Positions 2,796-56,720 of a DNA stretch of 64,000 bases are shown in pieces. How positions within the stretch are numbered: position 1 is the stretch's first letter; the number at the start of each line of letters is the position of its first letter. Source of the stretch: Burkholderiales bacterium (lineage in GTDB: Bacteria > Pseudomonadota > Gammaproteobacteria > Burkholderiales > SG8-39); the NCBI GenBank assembly GCA_027493935.1, contig JAOSJV010000010.1, positions 814,483 through 878,482 on the forward strand, given 5' to 3'. Both the position numbers and the translations under genes were made by a program. The notes under the pieces are model-generated. The model did not search any database, was not told where the DNA came from, and saw only the letters and a list, made by a program, of their open reading frames with translations.

Positions 2796-3494
2796 TCACA
2801 TGATCCTGAATCGCACCGGCAGCAGGATCGTCTTGTTCGCGCTGGATGGTCCGAGCGTCCCCACCTTGCGCACGGCGCGTAGCGCCGCTGCGTCGAGCTC
2901 CGGATGGCCCGAGCCGCTCGCGATCGACGCATCCAGAATGCGCCCGGTCTCGCCGAGTTCGACGAGGACCACCACCTCGCCCTCCAGCCCGCGCCTCAGG
3001 GCCTCCGGCGGATAGAGCATCTCCTCGGACAGCCGGCCCAGCGTCTCGCGCAGCGCCTCGGGCGGCAGCTGCTCGGCCGCACGCGGCCGCAGACCAGCGC
3101 CGCTCCGCTCGGGCGGCGGCAGGCGCAGGTCGAGTCCGCGCCGCTCCGGCGGTGCGCTCGCCCTCTCGCCGGGCGACCGCGCAATCGGCGGCGCCGTCGC
3201 GGCAGCCGACTTCGGCTTACGTGTCCGCTGCACGCGGCGCTTTGGCTCGATCGGATCCGCGAGCGGCTTCGCGTGCGGCGGGTCGAGCGTGTTTTTCAGT
3301 ACTTCCGGCGGCGCCCCCAACCGGGCCGCGGGAGGCACGAGCCGCGCTTGCAGCGCGGCCTGCGGCGCCTGCGGGGTGCGGACCGCGACGCCGGGCTCGA
3401 CCTCGAGCGCGACGAGCGCGTACACGTGCAGCCCAAGCGAGAGACCGAGCGACCAGCCGAGCGGGCCGCGCGTGCGCGCGTGCGCGGGCTTCAT
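2796..3494 (-). CDS. TonB-family energy transducer (TonB C-terminal domain protein)
   Basis: N-terminal TM segment WSLGLSLGLHVYALVALEV, a Pro-rich linker, and a C-terminal TonB domain YPPEALRRGLEGEVVVLVELGETGRILDASIASGSGHPELDAAALRAV. ATG 3494 is preferred; an alternative upstream start is at 3557. Confidence 0.75.
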   Translation of the reverse strand: MKPAHARTRGPLGWSLGLSLGLHVYALVALEVEPGVAVRTPQAPQAALQARLVPPAARLGAPPEVLKNTLDPPHAKPLADPIEPKRRVQRTRKPKSAAATAPPIARSPGERASAPPERRGLDLRLPPPERSGAGLRPRAAEQLPPEALRETLGRLSEEMLYPPEALRRGLEGEVVVLVELGETGRILDASIASGSGHPELDAAALRAVRKVGTLGPSSANKTILLPVRFRIM

Positions 3495-4651: not shown

Positions 4652-5527
4652 GTGAGCGCGCGCGGCATCTCGAGGTTCGACGCGGCATCGCTCGGCGGCG
4701 GCTTCCGCCACGGCATGGTGCCGGCGGGCGACGTGGCGCTGCATGTCGTGCGCGGCGGCAGCGGCGATCCGCTTGTCCTGCTCGCCGGCTGGCCGCAGTC
4801 GTGGTACGCCTGGCGCAAGGTGATGCCGCGGCTCGCCGAGCGCTACGCGGTCTGCGCAATCGACCTGCCGGGCATGGGCGACTCGCAACGCCCGGCCGCG
4901 GACTACGACGTCGCCGCAGTGGCGCGGCGCGTGCGCCAGGCGCTCGCCGCGCTCGGCATCGAGCGCTGCCTGCTCGTCACGCACGACATCGGCACCTGGG
5001 TGGCGTTCCGGTTCGCGCACGAGTACCGCGCGGTGGTGCGCAAGGTCGTGCTGATGGATGCCGCCATCCCGGGCCTCTACGCGCCGCCGCCGGATCCCAA
5101 GCTGTGGCATTTCGGCTTCAACCAGCAGCGCGGGCTCGCCGAGGCGCTCACCGAGGGGCGCGAGCGGGTCTTCCTCGAATGGTTCTTCCGCAACCGCGCG
5201 CTCGTGACCAACGCGATCGGCGAGGCGGATCTCGACGAGTACGAGCGCGTGTACGGCGCTCCCGGCGCCATGCAGGCGGGCTTCGAGTACTACCGCGCGA
5301 TGCCGGTCTCGGCAGAGCAGAACCGCGCCCTGGCCGCACGCGGTCGGCTCACGCTGCCGGTCGCGGTGTTCGGCAGCGACACCGCGCTCGGCGCGGTCAT
5401 GATCGAGGCGATGCGCGCGCTCGCCGACGACGTGCTCGCCGAGATCGTCCCCGGCAGCGGCCACTACATCCCGGAGGAGAAGCCCGACCACCTGCTCGCG
5501 CGGCTCGCCGGGTTCCTGCCCGGCTGA
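4652..5527 (+). CDS. Alpha/beta-fold hydrolase (epoxide hydrolase / dehalogenase-like)
   Basis: LLAGWPQSWYAWRKV (HGxP-W-type motif), nucleophile elbow VTHDIGTWVA, C-terminal GSGHYIPEEKPD with the catalytic His. Confidence 0.8.
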   Translation: MSARGISRFDAASLGGGFRHGMVPAGDVALHVVRGGSGDPLVLLAGWPQSWYAWRKVMPRLAERYAVCAIDLPGMGDSQRPAADYDVAAVARRVRQALAALGIERCLLVTHDIGTWVAFRFAHEYRAVVRKVVLMDAAIPGLYAPPPDPKLWHFGFNQQRGLAEALTEGRERVFLEWFFRNRALVTNAIGEADLDEYERVYGAPGAMQAGFEYYRAMPVSAEQNRALAARGRLTLPVAVFGSDTALGAVMIEAMRALADDVLAEIVPGSGHYIPEEKPDHLLARLAGFLPG

Positions 5528-5593
5528 CGCGTCGATGGTAAGGTAGCGCCTGCGCGCGGCCGCGCGCAGGCATCCACCCTTCGGAAAGTAGCG

Positions 5594-6466
5594 ATGAAGC
5601 GAATCTTCCTGTTCCTCGCCACCAACATCGCCGTGCTCGCGGTGATCATGATCGTCGTGAGCGTGCTCGGCGTCGACCGCTTCCTCACCGAGGAGGGCAT
5701 CGACCTCGGCATGCTGCTCGCCTTCTCTGCCGTCGTCGGCTTTGCCGGCGCGATCATCTCGCTGCTCGTCTCCAAGCCGATGGCCAAGTGGTCGACCGGC
5801 GCCAAGGTGATCGATTCGCCGCGCGGCGAAGCCGAGCAGTGGCTGCTCGCCACGGTCAAGCGGCTCGCCGACCGGGCGCAGATCGGCATGCCGGAGGTTG
5901 CGGTGTACGAAGGCGCGCCGAACGCCTTCGCCACCGGCGCGTTCAAGAACTCGTCCCTCGTCGCCGTCTCGACCGGTCTGCTGCAATCGATGAGCAAGGA
6001 GGAGGTCGAGGCGGTGCTCGCCCACGAGGTCGCACACGTGGCCAACGGCGACATGGTGACGCTCACGCTGATCCAGGGCGTGGTCAACACGTTCGTGATC
6101 TTCCTGTCGCGCGTCGCCGGGTTCCTCGTCGACCGTGTCGTGTTCAAGACCGAGCGCGGTGTCGGTCCGGGCTTCTACATCACCTCGATCGTCTTCCAGA
6201 TCCTGTTCGGCATCCTGGCGGCGCTGATCGTGGCGTGGTTCTCGCGGCAGCGCGAGTTTCGCGCCGATCGCGGCTCCGTGGAGTATCTCGGATCCAGCAG
6301 GCCGATGATCAACGCGCTCGCCCGGCTCGGCGGAGCGGAGCCCGGCGCGCTGCCGGAGTCGATGCGCGCGATGGGTATCGCCGACCGGCCCGGCTGGATG
6401 GGGCTCTTCGCGAGCCACCCGCCGATCGAGCGCCGCATCGCCGCGCTGCAGGCGCTCGGGCGTTGA
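5594..6466 (+). CDS. htpX: Membrane zinc metalloprotease HtpX
   Basis: Colinear with HtpX: [15 protein letters not shown]..., [14 protein letters not shown], the HExxH motif in [14 protein letters not shown], and a C-terminal ...[14 protein letters not shown]. Confidence 0.95.
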
Positions 6467-31999: not shown

Positions 32000-33955
32000 A
32001 TGAAACCCGTGGACAACCTCTCCCCGGTCGAGGAGTACAGGCACTTCCGCCTGGAGACCGACCGCGACGGCATCGCGTGGCTGACATTCGACCGCGCCGG
32101 CAGCTCGACCAACACCTTCTCGACCGAGGTGATGCGGGAGCTGAACACCGTCCTCGACGTGCTCGCCACGCGAAAGCCGCGCGGACTCGTGATCCGCTCG
32201 GGGAAGAGTTCGGGCTTCATCGCCGGCGCCGACGTCGAGGAGTTCACCCGCATCGAGTCGACCGCCGACGCGCTCGCGATCGTGCGGCGCGGGTGGGATA
32301 CCCTGAACAAGCTCGCCGCGATGCCGTTTTCGACCGTGGCCCTGGTGCGCGGTTTCTGCATGGGCGGCGGACTCGAGCTCGCACTCGCCTGCCGCTACCG
32401 CATCGCGGTCGACGAGCCGGGCACGCGCTTCGCGCTGCCCGAGGTCACGCTCGGTATCCTGCCCGGCTGGGGCGGCGTGATGCGGCTGCCGCGCGTGATC
32501 GGCCCGAACGCCGCGCTCGACATGATGATGACCGGGCGCTCGGTGGACGCGCGGCGCGCGAAACGCATGGGGCTGGTCGACGCCAGCGTTCCGACGCGCG
32601 TGATGGACAACAGCGCGCGCATCATGGTGCTGGAGGCGCCGAAGCCCCGCGAGCTGCCGCTCAAGGACCGGCTGATGAACGGCCGGCTCAAGACGCTCGT
32701 CGCGAAGATCGCGCTGCGCCAGCTCGAGAAGAAGGCGCGCCGCGAGCACTACCCGGCGCCGTACGCGATCCTCGAGCTGTGGCTGAAGCACGACGGCGAT
32801 CCGTTCGCGCCGCCGGAGGGCGATCCGGCTTCGATCGCCTGCCTCGCGCAGCATCCGACCACCCGCAGCCTGATCCGCATCTTCGGGCTGCAGGAGCGCA
32901 TGAAGTCGCTCGGAAAGGAGAGCGACTTCGCCGCCAAGCGGGTGCACGTGGTCGGCGCGGGCACGATGGGCGGCGACATCGCCGCGGTGTGCGCGATGCG
33001 TGGGCTCACCGTGACGCTGCAGGACCAGAGCGCCGAGCGCCTGGCGCCGGCGATGAAGCGCGCCGCCGCGCTCTTCGGCAAGCGGGTCCGAGACAAGCTG
33101 CGCGCGCGCGACGCGATGGACCGGTTGATCCCGGACGTGTCGGGCGACGGCGCGCGCCATGCCGACGTGATCATCGAGGCGATCTTCGAGAATTTGGAGG
33201 CGAAGCGCGCGCTCTTCGCGCGGCTCGAGAAGATCGCGCGGCCGACGGCGATCCTCGCCACCAACACCTCGAGCCTGAAGCTCGCCGATATCGGCGAGGC
33301 GCTCGCCGATCCGGCGCGCCTCGTCGGCCTGCACTTCTTCAACCCGGTGCCGCAGCTGCAGCTGGTCGAGGTGGTCGCCGGCGAGCGGACCGGTCGGGAG
33401 TGGGCCAAGAAGGGCGCAGCGTTCGTGCGCCAGATCGACAAGCTGCCGCTGCCCGTGAAGGACTCGCCCGGGTTCCTGGTGAACCGCGTGCTCGGGCCGT
33501 ACCTGCTGCAGGCGTTCAAGCTCGTCGACGAGGGTGTCGCCAAGGAGACAGTCGACGCCGCCGCAACGCGCTTCGGGATGCCCATGGGCCCGATCGAGCT
33601 CGCTGACACGGTGGGCCTGGATATCTGCGCAGCCGCCGGCAAGTCGCTCGCCGGCGGGGACGCCGCGATGCCGAAAAGCCTCGCGACGCTGATCGACGCC
33701 GGCAAGCTCGGCAAGAAGTCGGGCGAAGGCTTCTACCGCTGGGTCGACGGCAAGCCGCGGAAAGGGCCCGGCGGCGAGCCGAGCGATGCGCTGGCGAACC
33801 GCCTGATCGAGCCCTATCTCGCCGAGGCGAAGAAGGCGGTCGAGGAAGGTGTCGTCGCCGACGCCGACCTCGCCGACGCGGGGCTCGTCTTCGGCACCGG
33901 ATTCGCGCCCTTCCGCGGCGGGCCATTGCATTACATGGCCCGGCGCGGATCGTAA
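32000..33955 (+). CDS. Bifunctional enoyl-CoA hydratase / 3-hydroxyacyl-CoA dehydrogenase (FadB/FadJ-like)
   Basis: Crotonase part FIAGADVEEF...GFCMGGGLELALACRYRI. NAD-binding site VHVVGAGTMGGDIA, and HAD part ATNTSSL...GLHFFNPVPQLQLVEVV...SPGFLVNRVL. 651 aa, intact. Confidence 0.9.
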   Translation: MKPVDNLSPVEEYRHFRLETDRDGIAWLTFDRAGSSTNTFSTEVMRELNTVLDVLATRKPRGLVIRSGKSSGFIAGADVEEFTRIESTADALAIVRRGWDTLNKLAAMPFSTVALVRGFCMGGGLELALACRYRIAVDEPGTRFALPEVTLGILPGWGGVMRLPRVIGPNAALDMMMTGRSVDARRAKRMGLVDASVPTRVMDNSARIMVLEAPKPRELPLKDRLMNGRLKTLVAKIALRQLEKKARREHYPAPYAILELWLKHDGDPFAPPEGDPASIACLAQHPTTRSLIRIFGLQERMKSLGKESDFAAKRVHVVGAGTMGGDIAAVCAMRGLTVTLQDQSAERLAPAMKRAAALFGKRVRDKLRARDAMDRLIPDVSGDGARHADVIIEAIFENLEAKRALFARLEKIARPTAILATNTSSLKLADIGEALADPARLVGLHFFNPVPQLQLVEVVAGERTGREWAKKGAAFVRQIDKLPLPVKDSPGFLVNRVLGPYLLQAFKLVDEGVAKETVDAAATRFGMPMGPIELADTVGLDICAAAGKSLAGGDAAMPKSLATLIDAGKLGKKSGEGFYRWVDGKPRKGPGGEPSDALANRLIEPYLAEAKKAVEEGVVADADLADAGLVFGTGFAPFRGGPLHYMARRGS

Positions 33956-34069
33956 TCCGGTCGCGGCGGGCCATTGCATCGCATGGCCCGGCGCGGATCG
34001 TAATCCGGTCGCGGCGGGCCATTGCATCGCATGGCCCGGCGCGGATCGTAATCCGGTCGCGGCGGGCCA
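33913..34069. repeat. 48-bp tandem repeat, about 3.2 copies, first copy being the fadB 3' end
   Basis: The GGCC phase marker recurs at 33921, 33969, 34017 and 34065. The unit is GGGCCATTGCAT(TA/CG)CATGGCCCGGCGCGGATCGTAATCCGGTCGCGGC. Every full copy carries GGCCAT..ATGGCC and the TAA. Confidence 0.95.
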
Positions 34070-34519: not shown

Positions 34520-34670
34520 GCGGGGCTCCTCTGGCGGGGTTGCTCGGAAGGTGTCGGCGGGCACGCTAGGCCGGCGCTTCTCCGCGAAAAGGAGGCGCCG
34601 CCGCGCCTTCGGCGCGACCGGCGCGGCTGCTAGCGCGGGCACACCGCTCCTCGACGAGGAGGGGCTGCGG
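34520..34670. repeat. Probable degenerate member of the SD/anti-SD hairpin element family (copy D)
   Basis: This convergent intergenic region contains GGCGGGGTTGC (compare GGCGGGGTGGTTGC), CGCGAAAAGGAGGCGCC, and GGGCACACCGCTCCTCGACGAGGAGGGGCTGC (compare GGCACCCCTCCTTGAAAAGGAGGGGAC). Confidence 0.35.
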
Positions 34671-36894: not shown

Positions 36895-37242
36895 GAAAGC
36901 GCCGGCGCCGCGCGGGCGGCAGCACGCCGTGCGCCGCAGATCGCCCCTGCACTGCGTATGGGTACCATGCGTCGGCTAGGTCCTGGCGATGCCCTCTCGT
37001 GACGACGAGGATACGCGCTGCCCAGCACGGGATCAATGGATCGCTACCGCCGAAAAAGTTCCCGCATCTTGCCGCCGCGCCGCGCGCGTCCTGCGCGCCG
37101 GCGCACCAGGCGCGCGCATGTGCGACCATCGCGGTTGCGGCGCGAACCCACGCCGGCGGCGGGTGTCCATCGGAGTGTCCGATTCCTCGCGGACGCGGCA
37201 AGCGGCACCGTCGCGACACCCGATCGAACCCAGGAGCCCGAA

Positions 37243-39960
37243 GTGCGCGACCCGGCACCGACCGCCATTCTGCTGAAGGACTACGCTCCGCCCGCGTTCC
37301 TCGTCGACACGATCGACCTCGACATCGCGATCTTCGACGACCACGCGCGCGTGCGCGCGACCCTCGCGGTGCGCCGCAATCCGACCGCGCGCGGCGTGCC
37401 GGCGGCGCCGCTCGCACTCGACGGCGACGAGCTTTCCCTCGTCTCGGTCGCGCTCGACGGCCGCGCGCTCGCCGCGGCCGAGTATGCGGTCGCGCCCGAC
37501 CGCCTCACGGTCCATGCGGTGCCCGACGCCTTCACGCTCGCGACCGAAGTGCGCATCGAGCCGCAGAAGAACACCAAGCTCATGGGTCTCTACGCGTCGA
37601 AGGACGGCTACTTCACGCAGTCCGAGGCCGAGGGCTTCCGCCGCATCACCTACTTCATCGACCGGCCGGACGTGATGGCGCGCTACACGTGCACGATTCG
37701 CGCCGATCGCGAACGCTGCCCGCACCTGCTCTCGAACGGCAATCCGGTGGCGGCTGGATTTGAACCACCCCGCCCTGCTGCGCAGGGCACCCTCCTTCCC
37801 AAGGGGGGATCAACCGCCCCGCCTTGAAAAGGAGGGGAAGGGACGGCGCTGGGTGCGCTGGGAAGACCCGTTCCCGAAGCCCTCCTACCTCTTCGCGGTG
37901 GTCGCAGCGAAACTCGACCGCCTGGAGGATAGCTTCGTCACGATGTCGGGCAAGCACGCGAAGCTCGAGATCTACGTCGAGCCCGGCAAGCTCGAGGAGG
38001 CGCGCTTCGCGATGGCGGCGCTCAAGCGCGCGATGAAGTGGGACGAGGAGATGTTCGGTCTCGAGCTCGACCTCGACCACTACATGATCGTCGCGGTCGG
38101 CGATTTCAACATGGGCGCGATGGAGAACAAGGGGCTCAACATCTTCAACACGAAGTACGTGCTCGCGCGGCCGGAGACGGCGACCGACGTCGATTACCAG
38201 AATATCGACCGCGTCGTCGCGCACGAGTATTTCCACAACTGGACCGGCAACCGGGTGACCTGCCGCGACTGGTTCCAGCTCTCGCTCAAGGAGGGGCTGA
38301 CCGTGTTCCGCGACCAGGAGTTCGGCGCGGACACGTACTCGCGCGCGGTGAGCCGGATCCGCGAGGTGCGCAACCTGCGCCTCAGCCAGTTCCCGGAGGA
38401 CGCCGGCCCGATGGCGCACCCGGTGCGCCCGCAGTCCTATATCGAGGTCACGAACTTCTACACCGCCACGGTGTACGAGAAGGGCGCCGAGGTCGTGCGC
38501 ATGCTCCGCACGCTGCTCGGCAAGGACGCGTTCCGGCGCGGCATGGACCTCTACTTCGAGCGCCACGACGGCCAGGCAGTGACCTGCGACGACTTCGTGC
38601 GTGCGATGGCCGATGCCGCGGGCGCCGACCTCGGGCAGTTCATGCGTTGGTACGACCAGGCGGGCACGCCCGTGATCACCGCCTCGGCAGCGTACGACGC
38701 GGCGACGCGACGCTACACACTCGAGCTCGCGCAGTCCTGCCCGCCGACGCCCGGCCAGCCGGTCAAGCTGCCGTTCCACATCCCGGTGGCCGTCGGCCTG
38801 GTCGGTCCGGACGGGCGCGACGTGCCGCTCAGGCTCGAGGGCGAGCCGGCGCCGGCCGGGACGACGCGTGTGCTATCGCTCGAGGCCGAGCGCGAGCGCT
38901 ACACCTTCGTGGACGTGCCGGGCGCGCCGGTGCCCTCGCTCTTGCGCGACTTCTCGGCGCCGGTGATCCTCAGGCACGACTACGACGAGGCGGCGCTCGC
39001 GCGGCTGATGGCGCACGACTCGGATCCGTTCAACCGCTGGGAGGCCGGCCAGCGGCTCGCGACGGGGCTGCTGATGCAGGGCGTCGCGACCCATCAGGCC
39101 GGGCGGCCTTTCGAGGTTCCTGACGCCATCGTGTCCGCGTTCGCGCGGGTGCTCGCCGACGCGCCGCGCGACCCCGCTTTCGCGGCCGAGGCGCTCACGC
39201 TCCCCCCGAGATCTTCCTCGCCGAGCAAATGGACGCGGTCGACCCGGACGCGATCCACGCGGCGCGCAACGCGCTCGCCGCGTACCTCGCGCGCGCGCTG
39301 CGGCGCGAGCTCGCCGCCGCCTACCGCGCGTACGCGGTGCCCGGGCCCTACAGCCCGGACGCCGCGAGCGCCGGCAAGCGCGCGCTGCGCAACCTGTGCC
39401 TCGCCTATCTGATGGAGCTCGCCGACGACGAGGCGCGCGCGCTGGCGATGGCGCAGTTCGAGCGCGCCGACAACATGACCGACGCCATGGCCGCGCTCGG
39501 CGCGCTCGCGCACTGCGACTGCCCCGAGCGCCTCGCGGCGCTCGATGCGTTCTACGCGCGCTGGCGAGGCGAGCCGCTGGTGGTGGACAAATGGCTGCGC
39601 GTGCAGTCGACCTCACGCCTGCCGGGCACGCTCGCCGGGGTCCGGCGGCTGCTTGCGCACCCGGCCTTCTCGCTCAAGAACCCGAACAAGGTCTATGCGC
39701 TCGTCGGCGGCTTCACGCTGGCGAACCACGTGCGCTTCCACGCCGCCGACGGCGGGGGCTATGCGTTCCTGGCCGACCAGGTGATCGCGCTCGATCGGCT
39801 CAACCCGCAGGTCGCCGCGCGCATGGCGCGCGCCTTCGACCGCTGGCGCAAGTTCGACGGCGGGCGTCAGGCTCATGCGCGCGCTGCGCTAGAGCGGGTG
39901 CGCGACACCGAGGGGCTCTCGAAGGACGCCACCGAGGTGGTGACGAAGGCGCTCGCGTAG
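37243..39960 (+). pseudogene. pepN: Aminopeptidase N (PepN); carries an intragenic repeat element and two frame breaks (G6 37803-37808, C6 39202-39207)
   Basis: AGGAG RBS and GTG 37243. Colinear with E. coli PepN: LLSNGN..., WVRWEDPFPKPSYLFA, GAMENKGLNIFN, HEYFHNWTGNRVTCRDWFQLSLKEGLTVFRDQEF, down to ...VVTKALA*. The coding signal runs through listed ORFs 37036..37827, 37760..39412 and 39229..39960. Confidence 0.9.
37757..37845. repeat. SD/anti-SD hairpin element, copy A (half element plus partial duplication) inside pepN
   Basis: AACCACCCCGCC-CTGCTGCGCA-GGGCACCCTCCTTCCCAAGGGGGGA-TC-AACCGCCCCGCC-TTGAAAAGGAGGGGA. This aligns with the right arm of copy C (AACCACCCCGCCGCTCCTCCGCGCGGCACCCCTCCTTGAAAAGGAGGGGA). 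Confidence 0.75.
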
Positions 39961-44964: not shown

Positions 44965-45200
44965 GCCCCGGTCGCGGGGAAGAGTGCGGCCCCGGGGTTC
45001 CCGAGCAGCCGCCGCCGAAGGCGCAAGCGCCCGCAATCGCTCAGGCGAGAGTACTCCACGACCGGGGGCGGCGTTCGCCCCGCAACTCTGGAGAGCGGCG
45101 AGCCGGGGCTCGCCCACCGAAGGGGCACGCGGCGCGCGGCCGGTGGTGATCCCGGCCGGTGGTGCGACCGTAAACTCTCAGGTCAAAGGACAGAGGGGTG
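44965..45200 (+). promoter_or_regulatory. Tandem glycine riboswitch (two aptamers) in the gcvT leader
   Basis: Aptamer 1: GGGAAGAG...GCCGCCGAAGGCGCAA...CTCAGGCGAGAGTAC. Aptamer 2: CTCTGGAGAG...CACCGAAGGGGCA...CTCTCAGGTCAAAGGACAGAG. These match the conserved GGAGAG / ACCGAAGGGGCAA / CUCAGGCAAAAGGAC cores, upstream of gcvTHP as in many bacteria. Confidence 0.8.
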
Positions 45201-45228
45201 ATCCGGGAAGACCGGCATCGCCCCTTTT
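45195..45228 (+). terminator. Riboswitch expression platform: GC-rich hairpin plus T4 (intrinsic terminator)
   Basis: GGGGTGATCCGG-GAAGA-CCGG(C)ATCGCCCC followed by TTTT. The 5' arm overlaps the 3' end of aptamer 2 (ACAGAGGGG), consistent with a glycine-ON switch. Confidence 0.6.
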
Positions 45229-45237
45229 CGTTCGCGG

Positions 45238-46349
<1,112 letters not shown>

Positions 46350-46364: not shown

Positions 46365-46531
46365 TTCCCCCTCTTCAAGGGGTGCCGGCGAAGCCGGCGG
46401 GGTGGTTGCTGCGATTGCAGTTTGCAGGGCGCGCACCACCCCGGCCGCTCGCGCGGCCACCCATCCTCGGGGAGGAAGGGACAGAAACGCACGGCGCGTC
46501 GCAGCACGGCACCCCTCGGAGAGGAGGGGAC
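46365..46531. repeat. SD/anti-SD hairpin palindromic element, copy B (gcvT-gcvH spacer)
   Basis: Left arm TTTCCCCCTCTTCAAGGGGTGCCGGCGAAGCCGGCGGGGTGGTTGC. Right arm GCGCACCACCCCGGCCGCTCGCGCGGCCACCCATCCTCGGGGAGGAAGGGA. An extra hairpin CGGCACCCCTCGGAGAGGAGGGGAC follows. Confidence 0.75.
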
Positions 46532-46559
46532 TCAGATCGCCCTACGTCGGAGACCAGCA

Positions 46560-46952
46560 ATGAACGTACCCGAGAACTTGAAGTACACCCCCGAGCACGA
46601 ATGGGTCCGCGCCGAAGCCGATGGCACGGTGACCGTCGGCATCACCGACCATGCGCAGAGCGCGCTGGGCGACCTCGTCTTCGTCGAGGTGCCGGAGGTG
46701 GGACGCACGCTGGCTGCGAACGAGGCGTGCTGCGTGGTCGAGTCGGTCAAGGCCGCCTCCGACGTCTACTCGCCGATCGCGGGCGAGGTGGTCGACTCGA
46801 ACGCCGCCATCGCCGACGCGCCGGAGAAAGTGAACCAGGATCCCTACAACGCGTGGCTCTTCAGGCTGAAGCCCGCCGACGAGGGCGACGTGGCGAAGCT
46901 GCTCGACGCCGCGGCATACCGGAAGGCAGTCGCAGCGGGCGGGGAAGGCTGA
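46560..46952 (+). CDS. gcvH: Glycine cleavage system H protein
   Basis: ATG 46560 ([17 protein letters not shown]...). Lipoyl-lysine motif [20 protein letters not shown]. Confidence 0.95.
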
Positions 46953-54030: not shown

Positions 54031-54112
54031 GGCCGTTGGCGGTTGGCGGTTCGACGAAGTCTGCACGCTGGCGCCGCGCCGCCTGCTGCCCGCTATCCAC
54101 GGTCAACTCACA
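54031..54112. repeat. Heptad-armed palindromic intergenic element, copy d
   Basis: Left arm GGCCGTTGGCGGTTGGCGGTTCGACG shares GTTGGCGGTTGGC with copy a. Right arm CCTGCTGCCCGCTATCCACGGTCAAC shares CTGCTGCCC and CCCGCTATCCAC with copies b and c. It overlaps the ACAD stop at 54108. Confidence 0.65.
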
Positions 54113-55322
54113 AGTACTTCCCCAGCTCGATCTTCGCGATCTGCGCCCGGTGCACCTCGTCGGGGCCGTCGGCGAGGCGCAGGCAGCGGTTCCAGGCGTA
54201 CATCCAGGCGAGCGGAAACTCCTGGCACACGCCGCCACCCCCGTGCGCCTGAATCGCCCAGTCGATCACCTGCTCGGCCATGTTGGGCGCGAGCACCTTG
54301 ATCATCGCGATCTCGGCGCGCGCGGCCTTGTTGCCGACCGTGTCCATCATGTGCGCCGCTTTCAGCGTGAGCAGCCGCGCCTGCTCGATCATGATGCGCG
54401 ACTCGGCGATGCGCTCGTGCCAGACGCCCTGCTCGGACACCGGCCGGCCGAACGCCACGCGGCTCTTGAGGCGCTTGCACATCAGTTCGAGCGCGCGCTC
54501 GGTCTGGCCGATGACGCGCATGCAGTGGTGGATGCGGCCGGGCCCGAGCCGGCCTTGCGCGATCTCGAAGCCGCGCCCATCGCCGAGCAGCATGTTGGCC
54601 GCCGGCACGCGCACGTCGCGCAGCACGATCTCCATGTGGCCATGCGGCGCGTCGTCGAAGCCGAACACCCGCAGCGCGCGGGTCACCTGCACCCCCGGCG
54701 TGTCGGCCGGCACCAGGATCATCGACTGCTGCTTGTGCCGGCTCGGGTTGTCCGGGTCGGTCTTGCCCATCACGATATAGATGCGGCAGCGCGGATCGCC
54801 GGCGCCCGAGGACCACCACTTGTGGCCATTGATCACGTACTCGCCGCCCTGCCGCTCGATGCGGCACTGGATGTTGGTCGCGTCCGACGAGGCGACGCCG
54901 GGTTCGGTCATCAGGAACGCGGAGCGTATCTCGCCCTCGAGGAGGGGGGCGAGCCACTTGCTCTGCTGCTCCGACGAGCCGTAGCGCAGCAGCACCTCCA
55001 TGTTCCCGGTGTCCGGCGCCGAGCAGTTGAAAACCTCCGGCGCCCAGGTGACGCGGCCCATGATCTCGCAGAGCGGCGCGTACTCGAGGTTCGAGAGCTC
55101 GCCGCCGTGGTCCTTCGGTCGCCACAGGTTCCACAGCCCCGCGGCGCGCGCCTTGGGCTTGAGCTCCTCGACGATGCGCGTCGGGATCCACGCGTTGCCT
55201 TTCGCGCGGTTCGCCTCGGCCTCCTCCCAGTAGCGGCTCTCGTTCGGACTGACGTGGCGTTCCATGAACGCGGCGAGCCTCGCCTGGAGCTCTTTCACCT
55301 TCGGGCTGAATTCGAAATCCAT
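54108..55322 (-). CDS. Acyl-CoA dehydrogenase (ACAD10/11-like)
   Basis: ATG 55322 ([24 protein letters not shown]...). Sequence [50 protein letters not shown], ...LADGPDEVH. Confidence 0.9.
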
Positions 55323-55341
55323 CGATCTCCGCTCCTCCTTG

Positions 55342-55469
55342 TTTCCCCTCCTCTTCGAGGAGAGGTGGCCGCGCAGCGGCCGGGGTGGTGCGCACGCGCC
55401 AGGAGGCGCGGTCGCCGAAACCACCCCGCCGCTCCTCCGCGCGGCACCCCTCCTTGAAAAGGAGGGGAC
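55342..55469. repeat. SD/anti-SD hairpin palindromic element, copy C (best-preserved)
   Basis: Left arm TTTCCCCTCCTCTTCGAGGAGAGGTGGCCGCGCAGCGGCCGGGGTGGTGC. Right arm AAACCACCCCGCCGCTCCTCCGCGCGGCACCCCTCCTTGAAAAGGAGGGGAC. The reverse complement of the right arm aligns with the left arm along its length. Confidence 0.8.
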
Positions 55470-55485: not shown

Positions 55486-56550
55486 CTATCCCAAGATCCG
55501 CTCCTCCACCAGCCGCCACCCCATCTCGGCGAGCGGGCGCGCGCGCCGGCCGGCGTCGAGCGCCTCCTGGCTCGCGGCGGTGCCGTCGAGCGCGCGCTTC
55601 ATGATCCCCTGCAGGATGGCCGACAGCCGGAACATGTTGTACGCGAGGTAGAAGTCCCAGTGCTCGATCCGCGCCCGTCGGGTGCGTGCACAGTACGCCG
55701 CGACGTACGCGGCCTCGCCGGGAATGCCGAGCGCCGCGAGGTCGAGCCCGCCGATACCGCGGAACCGCTCGGGCGGGATGTGCCAGCTCATGCAGTGGTA
55801 CGAGAAGTCAGCCAGCGGATGGCCGAGCGTCGAGAGCTCCCAGTCGAGCACCGCAAGCACGCGCGGCTCGGTCGGATGGAAGATGAGATTGTCCATGCGG
55901 TAATCGCCGTGCACCACCGCAGTCTCGTCGCCGGGCGGCACGTGCGCCGGCAGCCATTCGATCAGCCGGTCCATTGCCGCAATAGGCTCGGTCTGCGAGG
56001 CCTGGTACTGCTTCGACCAGCGCGCGATCTGGCGCGCGAGATAGTTGCCCGGCCTGCCGAAGTCGGCGAGGCCGACGGTGGCGTAGTCGACCGCGTGCAG
56101 CGCCGCGATCACGCGGTTCATCTCGTCGTAGATCGCGCGCCGCTCGCCGGGCGCCATGCCGGGCAGCGATTGCTCCCACAGCACGCGGCCCTCGACGTAC
56201 TCCATGACGAAGAACGCGCGGCCGATGACGCTCTCGTCCTCGCACAGGGCGAACGTGTGCGGCACCGGCACGCCCGTCCCGCCGAGCGCCGTGATCACGC
56301 GGTACTCGCGCTCGACCGCGTGGGCCGAGGGCAGGAGCTTCGCCGCCGGGCCGGGCTTCGCACGCATGACGTAGCGGCGGCCGCCGGCGCTCAGCAGGTA
56401 GGTCGGGTTCGACTGGCCGCCGCGGAACTGCTCGACGGCGAGCGCACCGGCGAAGCCTTGCACGCGTTCGCGCAGGTACTCCGCGAGCGCGCCGGCGTCG
56501 ATTCGATGCCGCTCGGCGACCGGCATCGTGCCGTCGAACTGCGCGCTCAT
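55486..56550 (-). CDS. Phosphotransferase (APH/choline-kinase fold) family protein, ACAD10-associated type
   Basis: ATG 56550 (MSAQFDG...). Sequence [19 protein letters not shown], and the catalytic [11 protein letters not shown]...[10 protein letters not shown]. Confidence 0.85.
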
Positions 56551-56720
56551 GCCAGGGCTCGGACCGGAAACGGCATTGGTGGGAATCCGCAAGCAATGCT
56601 ACCACGCACGCAACGCGATCAGACCCGGCGCCCGCCCGTGCGGCCCGCCGCGATGCTAAGCTCCCGCACGGCTGCCGCCGCACCGATCCACGCATCGCCC
56701 CGGAGCGCCAAGTCGAAAAG

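Follow-up and report, generated by a model that had tools for sequence, protein, structure and literature searches.

We report that the palindromic repeats in a 64,000-nucleotide stretch of a Burkholderiales genome (contig JAOSJV010000010.1, positions 814,483 to 878,482; hereafter the window) are, considering the evidence as a whole, probably non-autonomous, gene-less members of a widespread family of mobile elements that encode a DUF559 endonuclease. A full element is approximately 0.47 kb long and consists of a two-hairpin unit, the open reading frame (ORF) of a DUF559 (PF04480, Vsr-like) endonuclease, and an inverted unit; the unit is thus the terminal inverted repeat of the DUF559 element. 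A REP/MITE-type nature of the repeats had been proposed in a preliminary description of the window, and this reading is supported and sharpened in that the repeat arms are terminal inverted repeats of a DUF559-endonuclease element. Moreover, the unit is not lineage-specific, and units as well as full elements are found in frame within housekeeping genes.

Results

Two-hairpin units in the window

Inspection of four sites in the window and alignment of their arms revealed a shared unit of ≈48 nt with the layout T-CCCCTCC-loop-GGAGGGG-TG-(GC-rich covarying hairpin)-GGGGTGGTT. A covariance model, R1, was trained only on units from other genomes and used to scan the whole window (G+C content ≈71%) with the filters off. 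This resulted in five full units with E-values between 6e-18 and 1e-9, and the next full-length match scored 11.5 bits. The palindromic repeats described between gcvT and gcvH, between the acyl-CoA dehydrogenase (ACAD) and phosphotransferase genes, and in pepN were hence recovered, and their gene context was borne out by the coordinates and, for pepN, by Pfam. The features are as follows (positions in the window, strand, description):

34644-34664, no strand assigned: hairpin-1-like stem CCCCTCCTCGTCGAGGAGCGG (R1 12.9 bits, E 0.07, hairpin 1 only)
37036-39640, +: pepN, host of U6 and U7 (Pfam, homologues)
37761-37810, -: U6, A-type unit inside the pepN coding sequence (R1 39.3 bits, E 1e-9)
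37811-37845, -: U7, truncated unit with hairpin 1 and GGGGCGGTT, without hairpin 2 (alignment; R1 15.3 bits, hairpin 1 at 37817-37837)
45238-46349, +: gcvT, upstream of U1-U3, its reading frame broken at a C4 run near 46283
46365-46409, +: U1, A-type arm (TGCC..GGC-GGGGTGGTT), left half of the gcvT/gcvH dimer, hairpins seen on folding (R1 50.6 bits, E 6e-13)
46410-46431, no strand assigned: spacer between U1 and U2, arms tail-to-tail, tip of the long hairpin of the dimer (sequence inspection)
46432-46482, -: U2, B-type arm (TGGC..GCC-GGGGTGGTG) (R1 54.0 bits, E 6e-14)
46483-46531, -: U3, decayed unit (R1 9.4 bits, E 0.8; alignment)
46560-46952, +: gcvH, downstream of U1-U3, with its own Shine-Dalgarno (SD) sequence GGAG at 46549-46552
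54111-55322, -: ACAD gene, with its own SD sequence AGGAGGAG at 55332-55339 (-), just outside U4
55343-55392, +: U4, B-type arm ending GGGGTGGTG-CGC, left half of the APH/ACAD dimer (R1 67.5 bits, E 6e-18)
55393-55416, no strand assigned: spacer between U4 and U5, hairpin tip in the fold of the dimer (sequence inspection)
55417-55469, -: U5, A-type arm (R1 59.1 bits, E 2e-15)
55489-56592, -: gene of an APH-family phosphotransferase, the cistron upstream of U4/U5

The copy at 46365-46531 is real but had been taken as one palindrome, and it is composed of three units, U1(+), U2(-) and the decayed U3(-), the latter with a still recognisable hairpin 1 and a diverged 3' half. In pepN the repeat is present as well, but rather than a half palindrome it is a full unit (U6) followed in tandem by the truncated U7 in the same orientation. 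Since the hairpin-1-like stem at 34644-34664 is the sole support for the degenerate copy suggested at 34520-34670, this copy is weak, and it is doubtful that the stem belongs to the unit family. Approximately 450 nt upstream of this weak copy, at 33914-34069, there are 3.2 tandem copies (98% identity) of an unrelated 48-nt unit, CGCGGCGGGCCATTGCATCGCATGGCCCGGCGCGGATCGTAATCCGGT, with two short hairpins per copy.

The two dimers (46365-46482 and 55343-55469) are non-coding, are bounded by inverted arms of 45-53 nt, and each pairs one A and one B arm, as do the right and left arms of an Ottowia element described below. U5 is the window copy nearest to the family consensus. With respect to folding, the local CCCCTCC/GGAGGGG hairpin that had been assigned to each arm forms when single units are folded alone, but in the minimum-energy RNA folds of the dimers one arm pairs with the other (-110 and -115 kcal/mol, with z-scores of -6.6 and -4.0, respectively). 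By sequence inspection, no direct repeat that could represent a target-site duplication flanks the window copies.

The unit is present in many phyla

Searching one genome per species with a 19-base pattern, GGGTGCC-N(8-22)-GGCGGGGTGGTT, gave at least 117 loci. Among the matches listed, the full two-hairpin unit is present at 88 of the 117 loci (127 units), and the other listed matches are chance occurrences in actinobacterial coding DNA. The hosts belong to Patescibacteria, Bacteroidota, Acidobacteriota, Bacillota, Actinomycetota, Cloacimonadota and several proteobacterial classes. Specifically, they include low-G+C genomes (Patescibacteria, Kuenenbacteria and Gracilibacteria; G+C 0.36-0.42), Flavobacterium, Chitinophagaceae, Emticicia, Muribaculaceae and Marinilabiliaceae, Acidobacteria group 5, termite-gut Oscillospiraceae and other Clostridia, Coriobacteriales, Cloacimonadota, Desulfuromonadales, Rickettsiales and other Alphaproteobacteria, and Thiorhodospira. 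The units closest to those of the window are, among the matches listed, in several Burkholderiales metagenome-assembled genomes (MAGs). In viruses the unit is rare, with three true matches in 2.9 million viral contigs.

The near-invariant parts of the unit are hairpin 1 (CCCCTCC/GGAGGGG) and two GGGGTG motifs, while in hairpin 2 the pairing is kept and the sequence varies (34 different stem arms). Support for the hairpins came from direct stem measurement and a gapless alignment: the mean uninterrupted stem of hairpin 2 is 5.4 bp vs 0.7 bp in shuffled sequences, and in the gapless alignment of 22 units 97.6% of the cells pair, with covariation above that of all 500 shuffles and all slid controls. 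The hairpin-2 loops are commonly GAA or GCA closed by a C-G pair, which we take to be the loop type of the very stable d(GCGNAGC) DNA mini-hairpin, a weak hint that the structure may matter in DNA. The Burkholderiales units fall into two subtypes, A (TGCC..GGC-GGGGTGGTT) and B (TGGC..GCC-GGGGTGGTG). Units are mostly stop-free, in keeping with the expectation from their composition; there are on average 5.0 of 6 open frames vs 4.7 in shuffles, and length modulo 3 is even, hence there is no real signal of stop-codon depletion.

Units occur singly, in tandem, head-to-head and tail-to-tail. Repeated units were seen in termite-gut Clostridia MAGs (loci L112, L099 and L048). L112 has an array of five units head-to-tail at 5507-5892 with a period of ≈59 nt, whereas Oscillospiraceae Hs463_bin105 has longer composite repeats within which units are paired head-to-head, and as many as five units are found there per 8 kb. 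When the ORFs of the 117 listed loci were clustered, common housekeeping families were the only recurrent ones and no recurrent transposase or RAYT was found near the units; the genes that abut units are unrelated to each other.

A DUF559 endonuclease gene between inverted units

The coding partner was found through low-G+C genomes, in which real ORFs are easily seen and several units lie in frame in housekeeping genes. In Candidatus Enterousia (locus L075) queA contains two segments, each consisting of a (+) unit, a DUF559 domain of ≈115 codons and a (-) unit, and the two domains match PF04480 at E = 1e-25 and 2e-27. A second locus, L023, has the same layout with a free-standing DUF559 ORF that starts one base past GGGGTGGTT. 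In general, the DUF559 ORF of full elements is ≈125 codons long and begins within a few bases of GGGGTGGTT, and the second, inverted unit encodes the C-terminus of DUF559. An ORF positioned exactly between (+) and (-) units is also present in Ottowia caeni CP151080.1.

From the protein side, metagenomes were scanned with two DUF559 peptide patterns only, which gave 29 loci; both arms are in the expected places at ≈23 of the 29, in agreement with R1. These loci are not independent because many of them represent two shared queA insertions in related gut Alphaproteobacteria. Among 8,000 protein clusters (90% identity) scored, at least 7,988 match the profile of this DUF559 clade at E ≤ 1e-10, and most of the matches are proteins of 120-190 aa. 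Named members (from Ottowia, Advenella, Desulfonatronum, Chrysiogenes, Planctomycetota and Rickettsiales) are ≈50-65% identical to the gut alphaproteobacterial query and share the start MR(N/K)TK.Y.SLP(F/Y)N. Moreover, the C-terminus corresponds to the translated right arm (for example ..TTPALRATPPEEGN or PPRPSGTPPEEGN) in 32 of the best 120, covering several phyla, by a motif test that undercounts.

The arm and the nuclease change together, given that in more distant relatives, at 33-50% identity, arms are diverged or absent. At 39-50% identity (L143-L147) the arms flanking DUF559 keep the two-hairpin design in diverged form. Among viral contigs, canonical arms enclose the DUF559 gene of L168, a close relative (58% identity), and are absent from relatives at 33-41% identity. 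Close DUF559 relatives are rare on plasmids. In Neisseria gonorrhoeae (L167, 290-335) a 3hrl-like DUF559 gene has a diverged hairpin, CCCCTCTCCCTGTGGGAAAGAGTTAGAGAGAGGG, on its left and lacks a right arm, and may thus represent the decayed remains of an element from a sister clade.

Among solved structures, the DUF559 protein 3hrl is matched by the clade (E = 4e-26), while at E ≤ 0.01 no sequence-level match to the structure of I-Bth0305I was seen. Defence-system models gave no match. In the insertion-bearing proteins no domains were detected besides DUF559 and those of the host protein, and there was no intron or intein housing. DUF559 has been classed together with Vsr and a homing endonuclease family (PMC3424549, PMC9403480), and in an independent survey of predicted inversions between inverted repeats DUF559 genes were enriched among the affected genes, with an odds ratio of 14.3 (PMC9881135), which fits the inverted arms of the DUF559 elements.

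Using hmmsearch, no DUF559 gene was detected in the 64-kb window or at ≈25 Burkholderiales loci with the unit subtype of the window. The link between this subtype and the nuclease therefore rests on the shared arms and on Ottowia, which belongs to the same order.

Gene-less dimers in Ottowia are deletion derivatives

The complete genome of O. caeni (CP151080.1, locus L148) has 14 units at E ≤ 1e-6 within 6.4 kb and a full element at 2931-3401. The left arm of this element is B-like and its right arm A-like. Alignment to the full element revealed that three gene-less dimers of the unit array at 723-1389 keep both arms. Of the ORF region they preserve ≈45 nt at the 5' end and ≈17 nt at the 3' end, and the intervening ≈325 nt are missing. 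Since both ORF ends are retained, these dimers are internal-deletion derivatives; MITEs classically originate in this way, as shown here for the family in Ottowia. The B arms of the window end GGGGTG-GTG-CGC, and we infer that the GTG CGC could be the remnant of a start codon followed by an arginine codon.

The Ottowia locus also bears on who mobilises the units. The unit might be an independent REP-like repeat moved by other machinery, with DUF559 as a homing endonuclease gene that parasitises the centre of the dimer (GGGGTGGTT..AACCACCCC). This would account for the ORF being always exactly at the dimer centre, for units that are single, tandem or head-to-head besides tail-to-tail, and for units vastly outnumbering the gene (DUF559 is present at 2 of 88 unit-bearing loci among the matches listed), and the Vsr/DUF559 group does include a known homing endonuclease family (PMC3424549, PMC9403480). 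However, the gene-less Ottowia dimers hold remnants of both ORF ends and are thus deletion products rather than virgin targets, which speaks against homing as the way in which dimers generally arise, no other recurrent gene lies beside the units at the listed loci, and the cross-phylum identity of a 48-nt repeat would be left without a mobiliser. We regard homing into the repeat as unlikely, and as the main rival, since a lone nuclease is not known as a transposase and no target could be defined.

The same locus has seven units in alternating orientation (- + - + - + -) at 723-1389. Such clusters, modules in the form of hairpins, and a nuclease gene placed between two inverted modules as at RAYT loci would be expected of an ordinary REP/BIME that owes its mobility to a RAYT (Y1 HUH transposase) gene at another place in the genome. 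We give this explanation hardly any weight: the flanked gene is in every case seen DUF559 and not a Y1 transposase, no transposase recurs near the units at the listed loci, each unit comprises two hairpins and lacks a GTAG-type 5' head, and REPs are lineage-specific whereas the unit is common to many phyla.

In-frame insertions in protein-coding genes

Units or full elements are present in frame in queA, truB, ychF, iPGM and pepN. According to Pfam, the TruB domain is split in two by a 36-residue dimer insertion, iPGM contains a whole DUF559 domain in frame, QueA is split in three by two DUF559 elements, and the in-frame insertion in YchF was confirmed. In queA of gut Alphaproteobacteria (L075 and L119-L141) the DUF559 elements or their remnants are located at two hot sites, one following ..RDASRMLVV and the other ..GTTS.RTLESA, which are filled or empty in varying combinations among related genomes. 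GGTGGTT adjoins queA site 1 and GAACC is found at the pepN site, and neither is general. When queA and pepN sites with and without an insertion were compared, they were too diverged in sequence to reveal target-site duplications, and no consistent target sequence or target-site duplication could be defined.

The pepN gene of the window, as assembled, loses its frame at the element (≈37790-37808) and regains it ≈1.35 kb further on at a C6 run (39200-39206). With C3 changed to C4 at ≈37790 and G6 to G7 at 37803-37808 the frame is restored and the protein reads continuously through ..GFEPPRPAAQGTPPSQGGDQPPRLEKEGKGRRWVRW... The lesions in pepN and gcvT are single missing bases in homopolymers, and this suggests that the frame losses (in gcvT near 46283) are due to an error-prone, perhaps long-read, assembly rather than to pseudogenes; some of the deviations of the window units from the consensus may have the same cause.

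The closest PepN homologues (P0121 and P0122; 79-80% identity, 898 aa) are intact and have one unit at the pepN site of the window, corresponding to 17 extra residues with the peptide (E/L)EPPRPA(S/T)RGTPP(YK/SQ)GGE. A longer loop at this site, with 1-22 extra residues, is present in 28 of 113 comparable Burkholderiales-type PepN homologues (P0121-P0240). The loop lies between LLSNGN..G and RHW..DPFPKP, and several of the insertions resemble translations of other units, read in one or the other orientation. This loop may either attract insertions as a hotspot or be uniquely tolerant of them. Given the intact homologues with a unit and the unit-type loop peptides, the pepN insertion in all likelihood is translated and tolerated rather than inactivating.

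Neighbouring genes and the Shine-Dalgarno-like sequence

The GGAGGGG of hairpin 1 is SD-like, and the preliminary description had raised the possibility that its sequestration regulates downstream cistrons. According to this explanation, the units would be cis-acting RNA regulators in which the SD/anti-SD hairpin tunes translation, ribosome loading or mRNA stability downstream. Two copies do lie between cistrons of operons and their transcripts are predicted to fold very stably, but gcvH and the ACAD gene both have separate SD sequences outside the element, that of gcvH 7 nt before the ATG and 17 nt past the element, which speaks against SD regulation of these genes. Neither terminator-like nor promoter-like sites were found at the gcvT/gcvH and APH/ACAD copies.

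An orientation bias of the units relative to genes, which had been proposed as a check, was not found: the orientation with respect to flanking genes is mixed, both upstream (38 vs 27) and downstream (33 vs 32), and every dimer presents both strands. This, together with the in-frame units inside genes, argues against control of distal cistrons. The stem is near-invariant across phyla whatever the context, which argues against control of translation or ribosome loading, and identical sequence is present in frame within ORFs and in different phyla beside unrelated neighbours. Rfam 15 has no family for the units; in the window only glycine riboswitches pass the gathering score, and the best sub-threshold matches for units are generic long-hairpin miRNA models. 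With no Rfam match and no terminator-like site, we consider it very improbable that the units are RNA regulators. An SD-sequestering regulator is not supported, as orientation is mixed and the SD sequences of gcvH and ACAD lie outside the element. The SD-like sequence is a conserved part of the arm and not a local regulator, and a by-product effect of the very stable predicted hairpin on mRNA decay or processing is possible.

The glycine riboswitches constitute a tandem pair upstream of gcvT at 44967-45203 (+), with two RF00504 aptamers scoring 45 and 49 bits. The only other public contig that encodes exactly this GcvH, Logan contig SRR28430726_75130 (L001 1-127), ends inside U2, which is consistent with the repeat breaking short-read assemblies.

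Discussion

A model for the DUF559 element family

If the window copies are gene-less members of the DUF559 family, as we find probable, a simple model can be outlined. The DUF559 nuclease would recognise the conserved hairpin 1 and the GGGGTG motifs, such that the SD-like sequence would be part of the nuclease recognition module. Breaks made by DUF559 could enable the copying of units and elements into new sites, possibly via microhomology or a transposition-like step. Gene-less dimers such as those at 46365-46482 and 55343-55469 would arise from the full element by internal deletion of the ORF, whereas recombination or additional rounds of spread would produce the single, tandem and alternating units. 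Because the units are short, GC-rich and mostly stop-free, those that insert into surface loops with a length of 3n could survive as in-frame peptides, as in pepN. Any effect on gcvH or ACAD expression would be a by-product of the stable transcript hairpin.

We know of no transposition role for a lone PD-(D/E)XK nuclease, hence the model leaves the spreading step unexplained. In addition, a simple terminal-inverted-repeat transposon does not predict single and tandem units, which counts against the model.

Comparison with known systems

The units share several features with known repeats and mobile elements. Like MITEs (Correia/NEMIS of Neisseria, ERIC and Nezha), they are short and non-coding, have inverted arms and many dispersed copies, are often located between cistrons and give long hairpins in transcripts. 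MITEs are what remains of a longer coding element once its interior has been deleted, as is the case in Ottowia. However, MITEs have a DDE transposase as partner, whereas here the partner is a Vsr-like endonuclease of ≈125 aa with PF04480 only. Furthermore, no target-site duplication could be defined at the sites compared here, and the arm is a two-hairpin module that also exists alone, in tandem and in alternation, with a sequence common to many phyla.

As in REP/BIME systems, hairpin modules are found singly, as inverted pairs and in alternating clusters, the modules far outnumber the gene, and a gene for a small nuclease lies between two modules in inverted orientation. The differences are that REP/BIME systems rely on an HUH Y1 enzyme rather than a PD-(D/E)XK/Vsr-like PF04480 nuclease, that a REP is a single imperfect palindrome of 20-40 nt with a GTAG-type 5' head rather than two hairpins with GGGGTG 3' of each, and that REPs are lineage-specific and vertically inherited whereas the present units cross phyla.

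Rickettsia palindromic elements (RPEs) are likewise palindromic repeats that persist in frame in housekeeping proteins. The likeness is one of behaviour, and it differs in that the unit family extends beyond Rickettsia and has an identifiable coding partner; to our knowledge, no enzyme has been tied to RPEs. The ORF of the full element shares the PF04480/Vsr-DUF559 group with 3hrl and with the Vsr-like/EDxHD homing endonucleases (I-Bth0305I), but it has no housing in a group I intron or an intein and is bracketed by 48-nt two-hairpin inverted repeats. Finally, IS200/IS605 elements and their PATE derivatives are also very small and have ends that are hairpins and not simple inverted repeats, and the left end of IS200 forms an SD-sequestering hairpin. 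They differ in enzyme and in end architecture, and no sign of single-strand transposition was seen here.

Implications

The window feature itself is of a known kind, a MITE-like or REP-like repeat, and what appears to be new is the enzyme partner, the spread across phyla and the RPE-like behaviour. In line with the preliminary description, in which the repeat was not recognised as a named element, no Rfam family was found for it. In the literature on DUF559 and Vsr-like nucleases, inverted repeats, mobile elements and RPEs, the coverage of which was incomplete, no earlier account of a DUF559 element was found, and a literature search by unit sequence gave unrelated primers only.

Taken together, and tentatively, the data raise the possibility of an unrecognised class of minimal mobile element, ≈0.47 kb long, with two-hairpin arms of 48 nt and DUF559 as its sole protein. 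Such a class would be present in at least 10 phyla, make both REP/BIME-like arrays and MITE-like dimers, and persist in frame, like RPEs, in essential proteins, sometimes with the whole nuclease domain; the DUF559 family might then largely comprise nucleases of selfish elements.

For the annotation of genomes, the units appear to break short-read assemblies and to cause apparent frameshifts and odd insertions in annotated proteins, and they can be mistaken for regulatory RNAs. If the above reading is correct, it would give a biological role to a very large DUF family (at least 7,988 clusters at 90% identity) and add a nuclease class to the few enzymes that have been linked with bacterial palindromic repeats. 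A 125-aa enzyme and a 48-nt substrate would constitute a tractable system for studying how repeats move. Moreover, selfish DNA within coding genes would extend beyond Rickettsia, from bacteria of the candidate phyla radiation to Burkholderiales.
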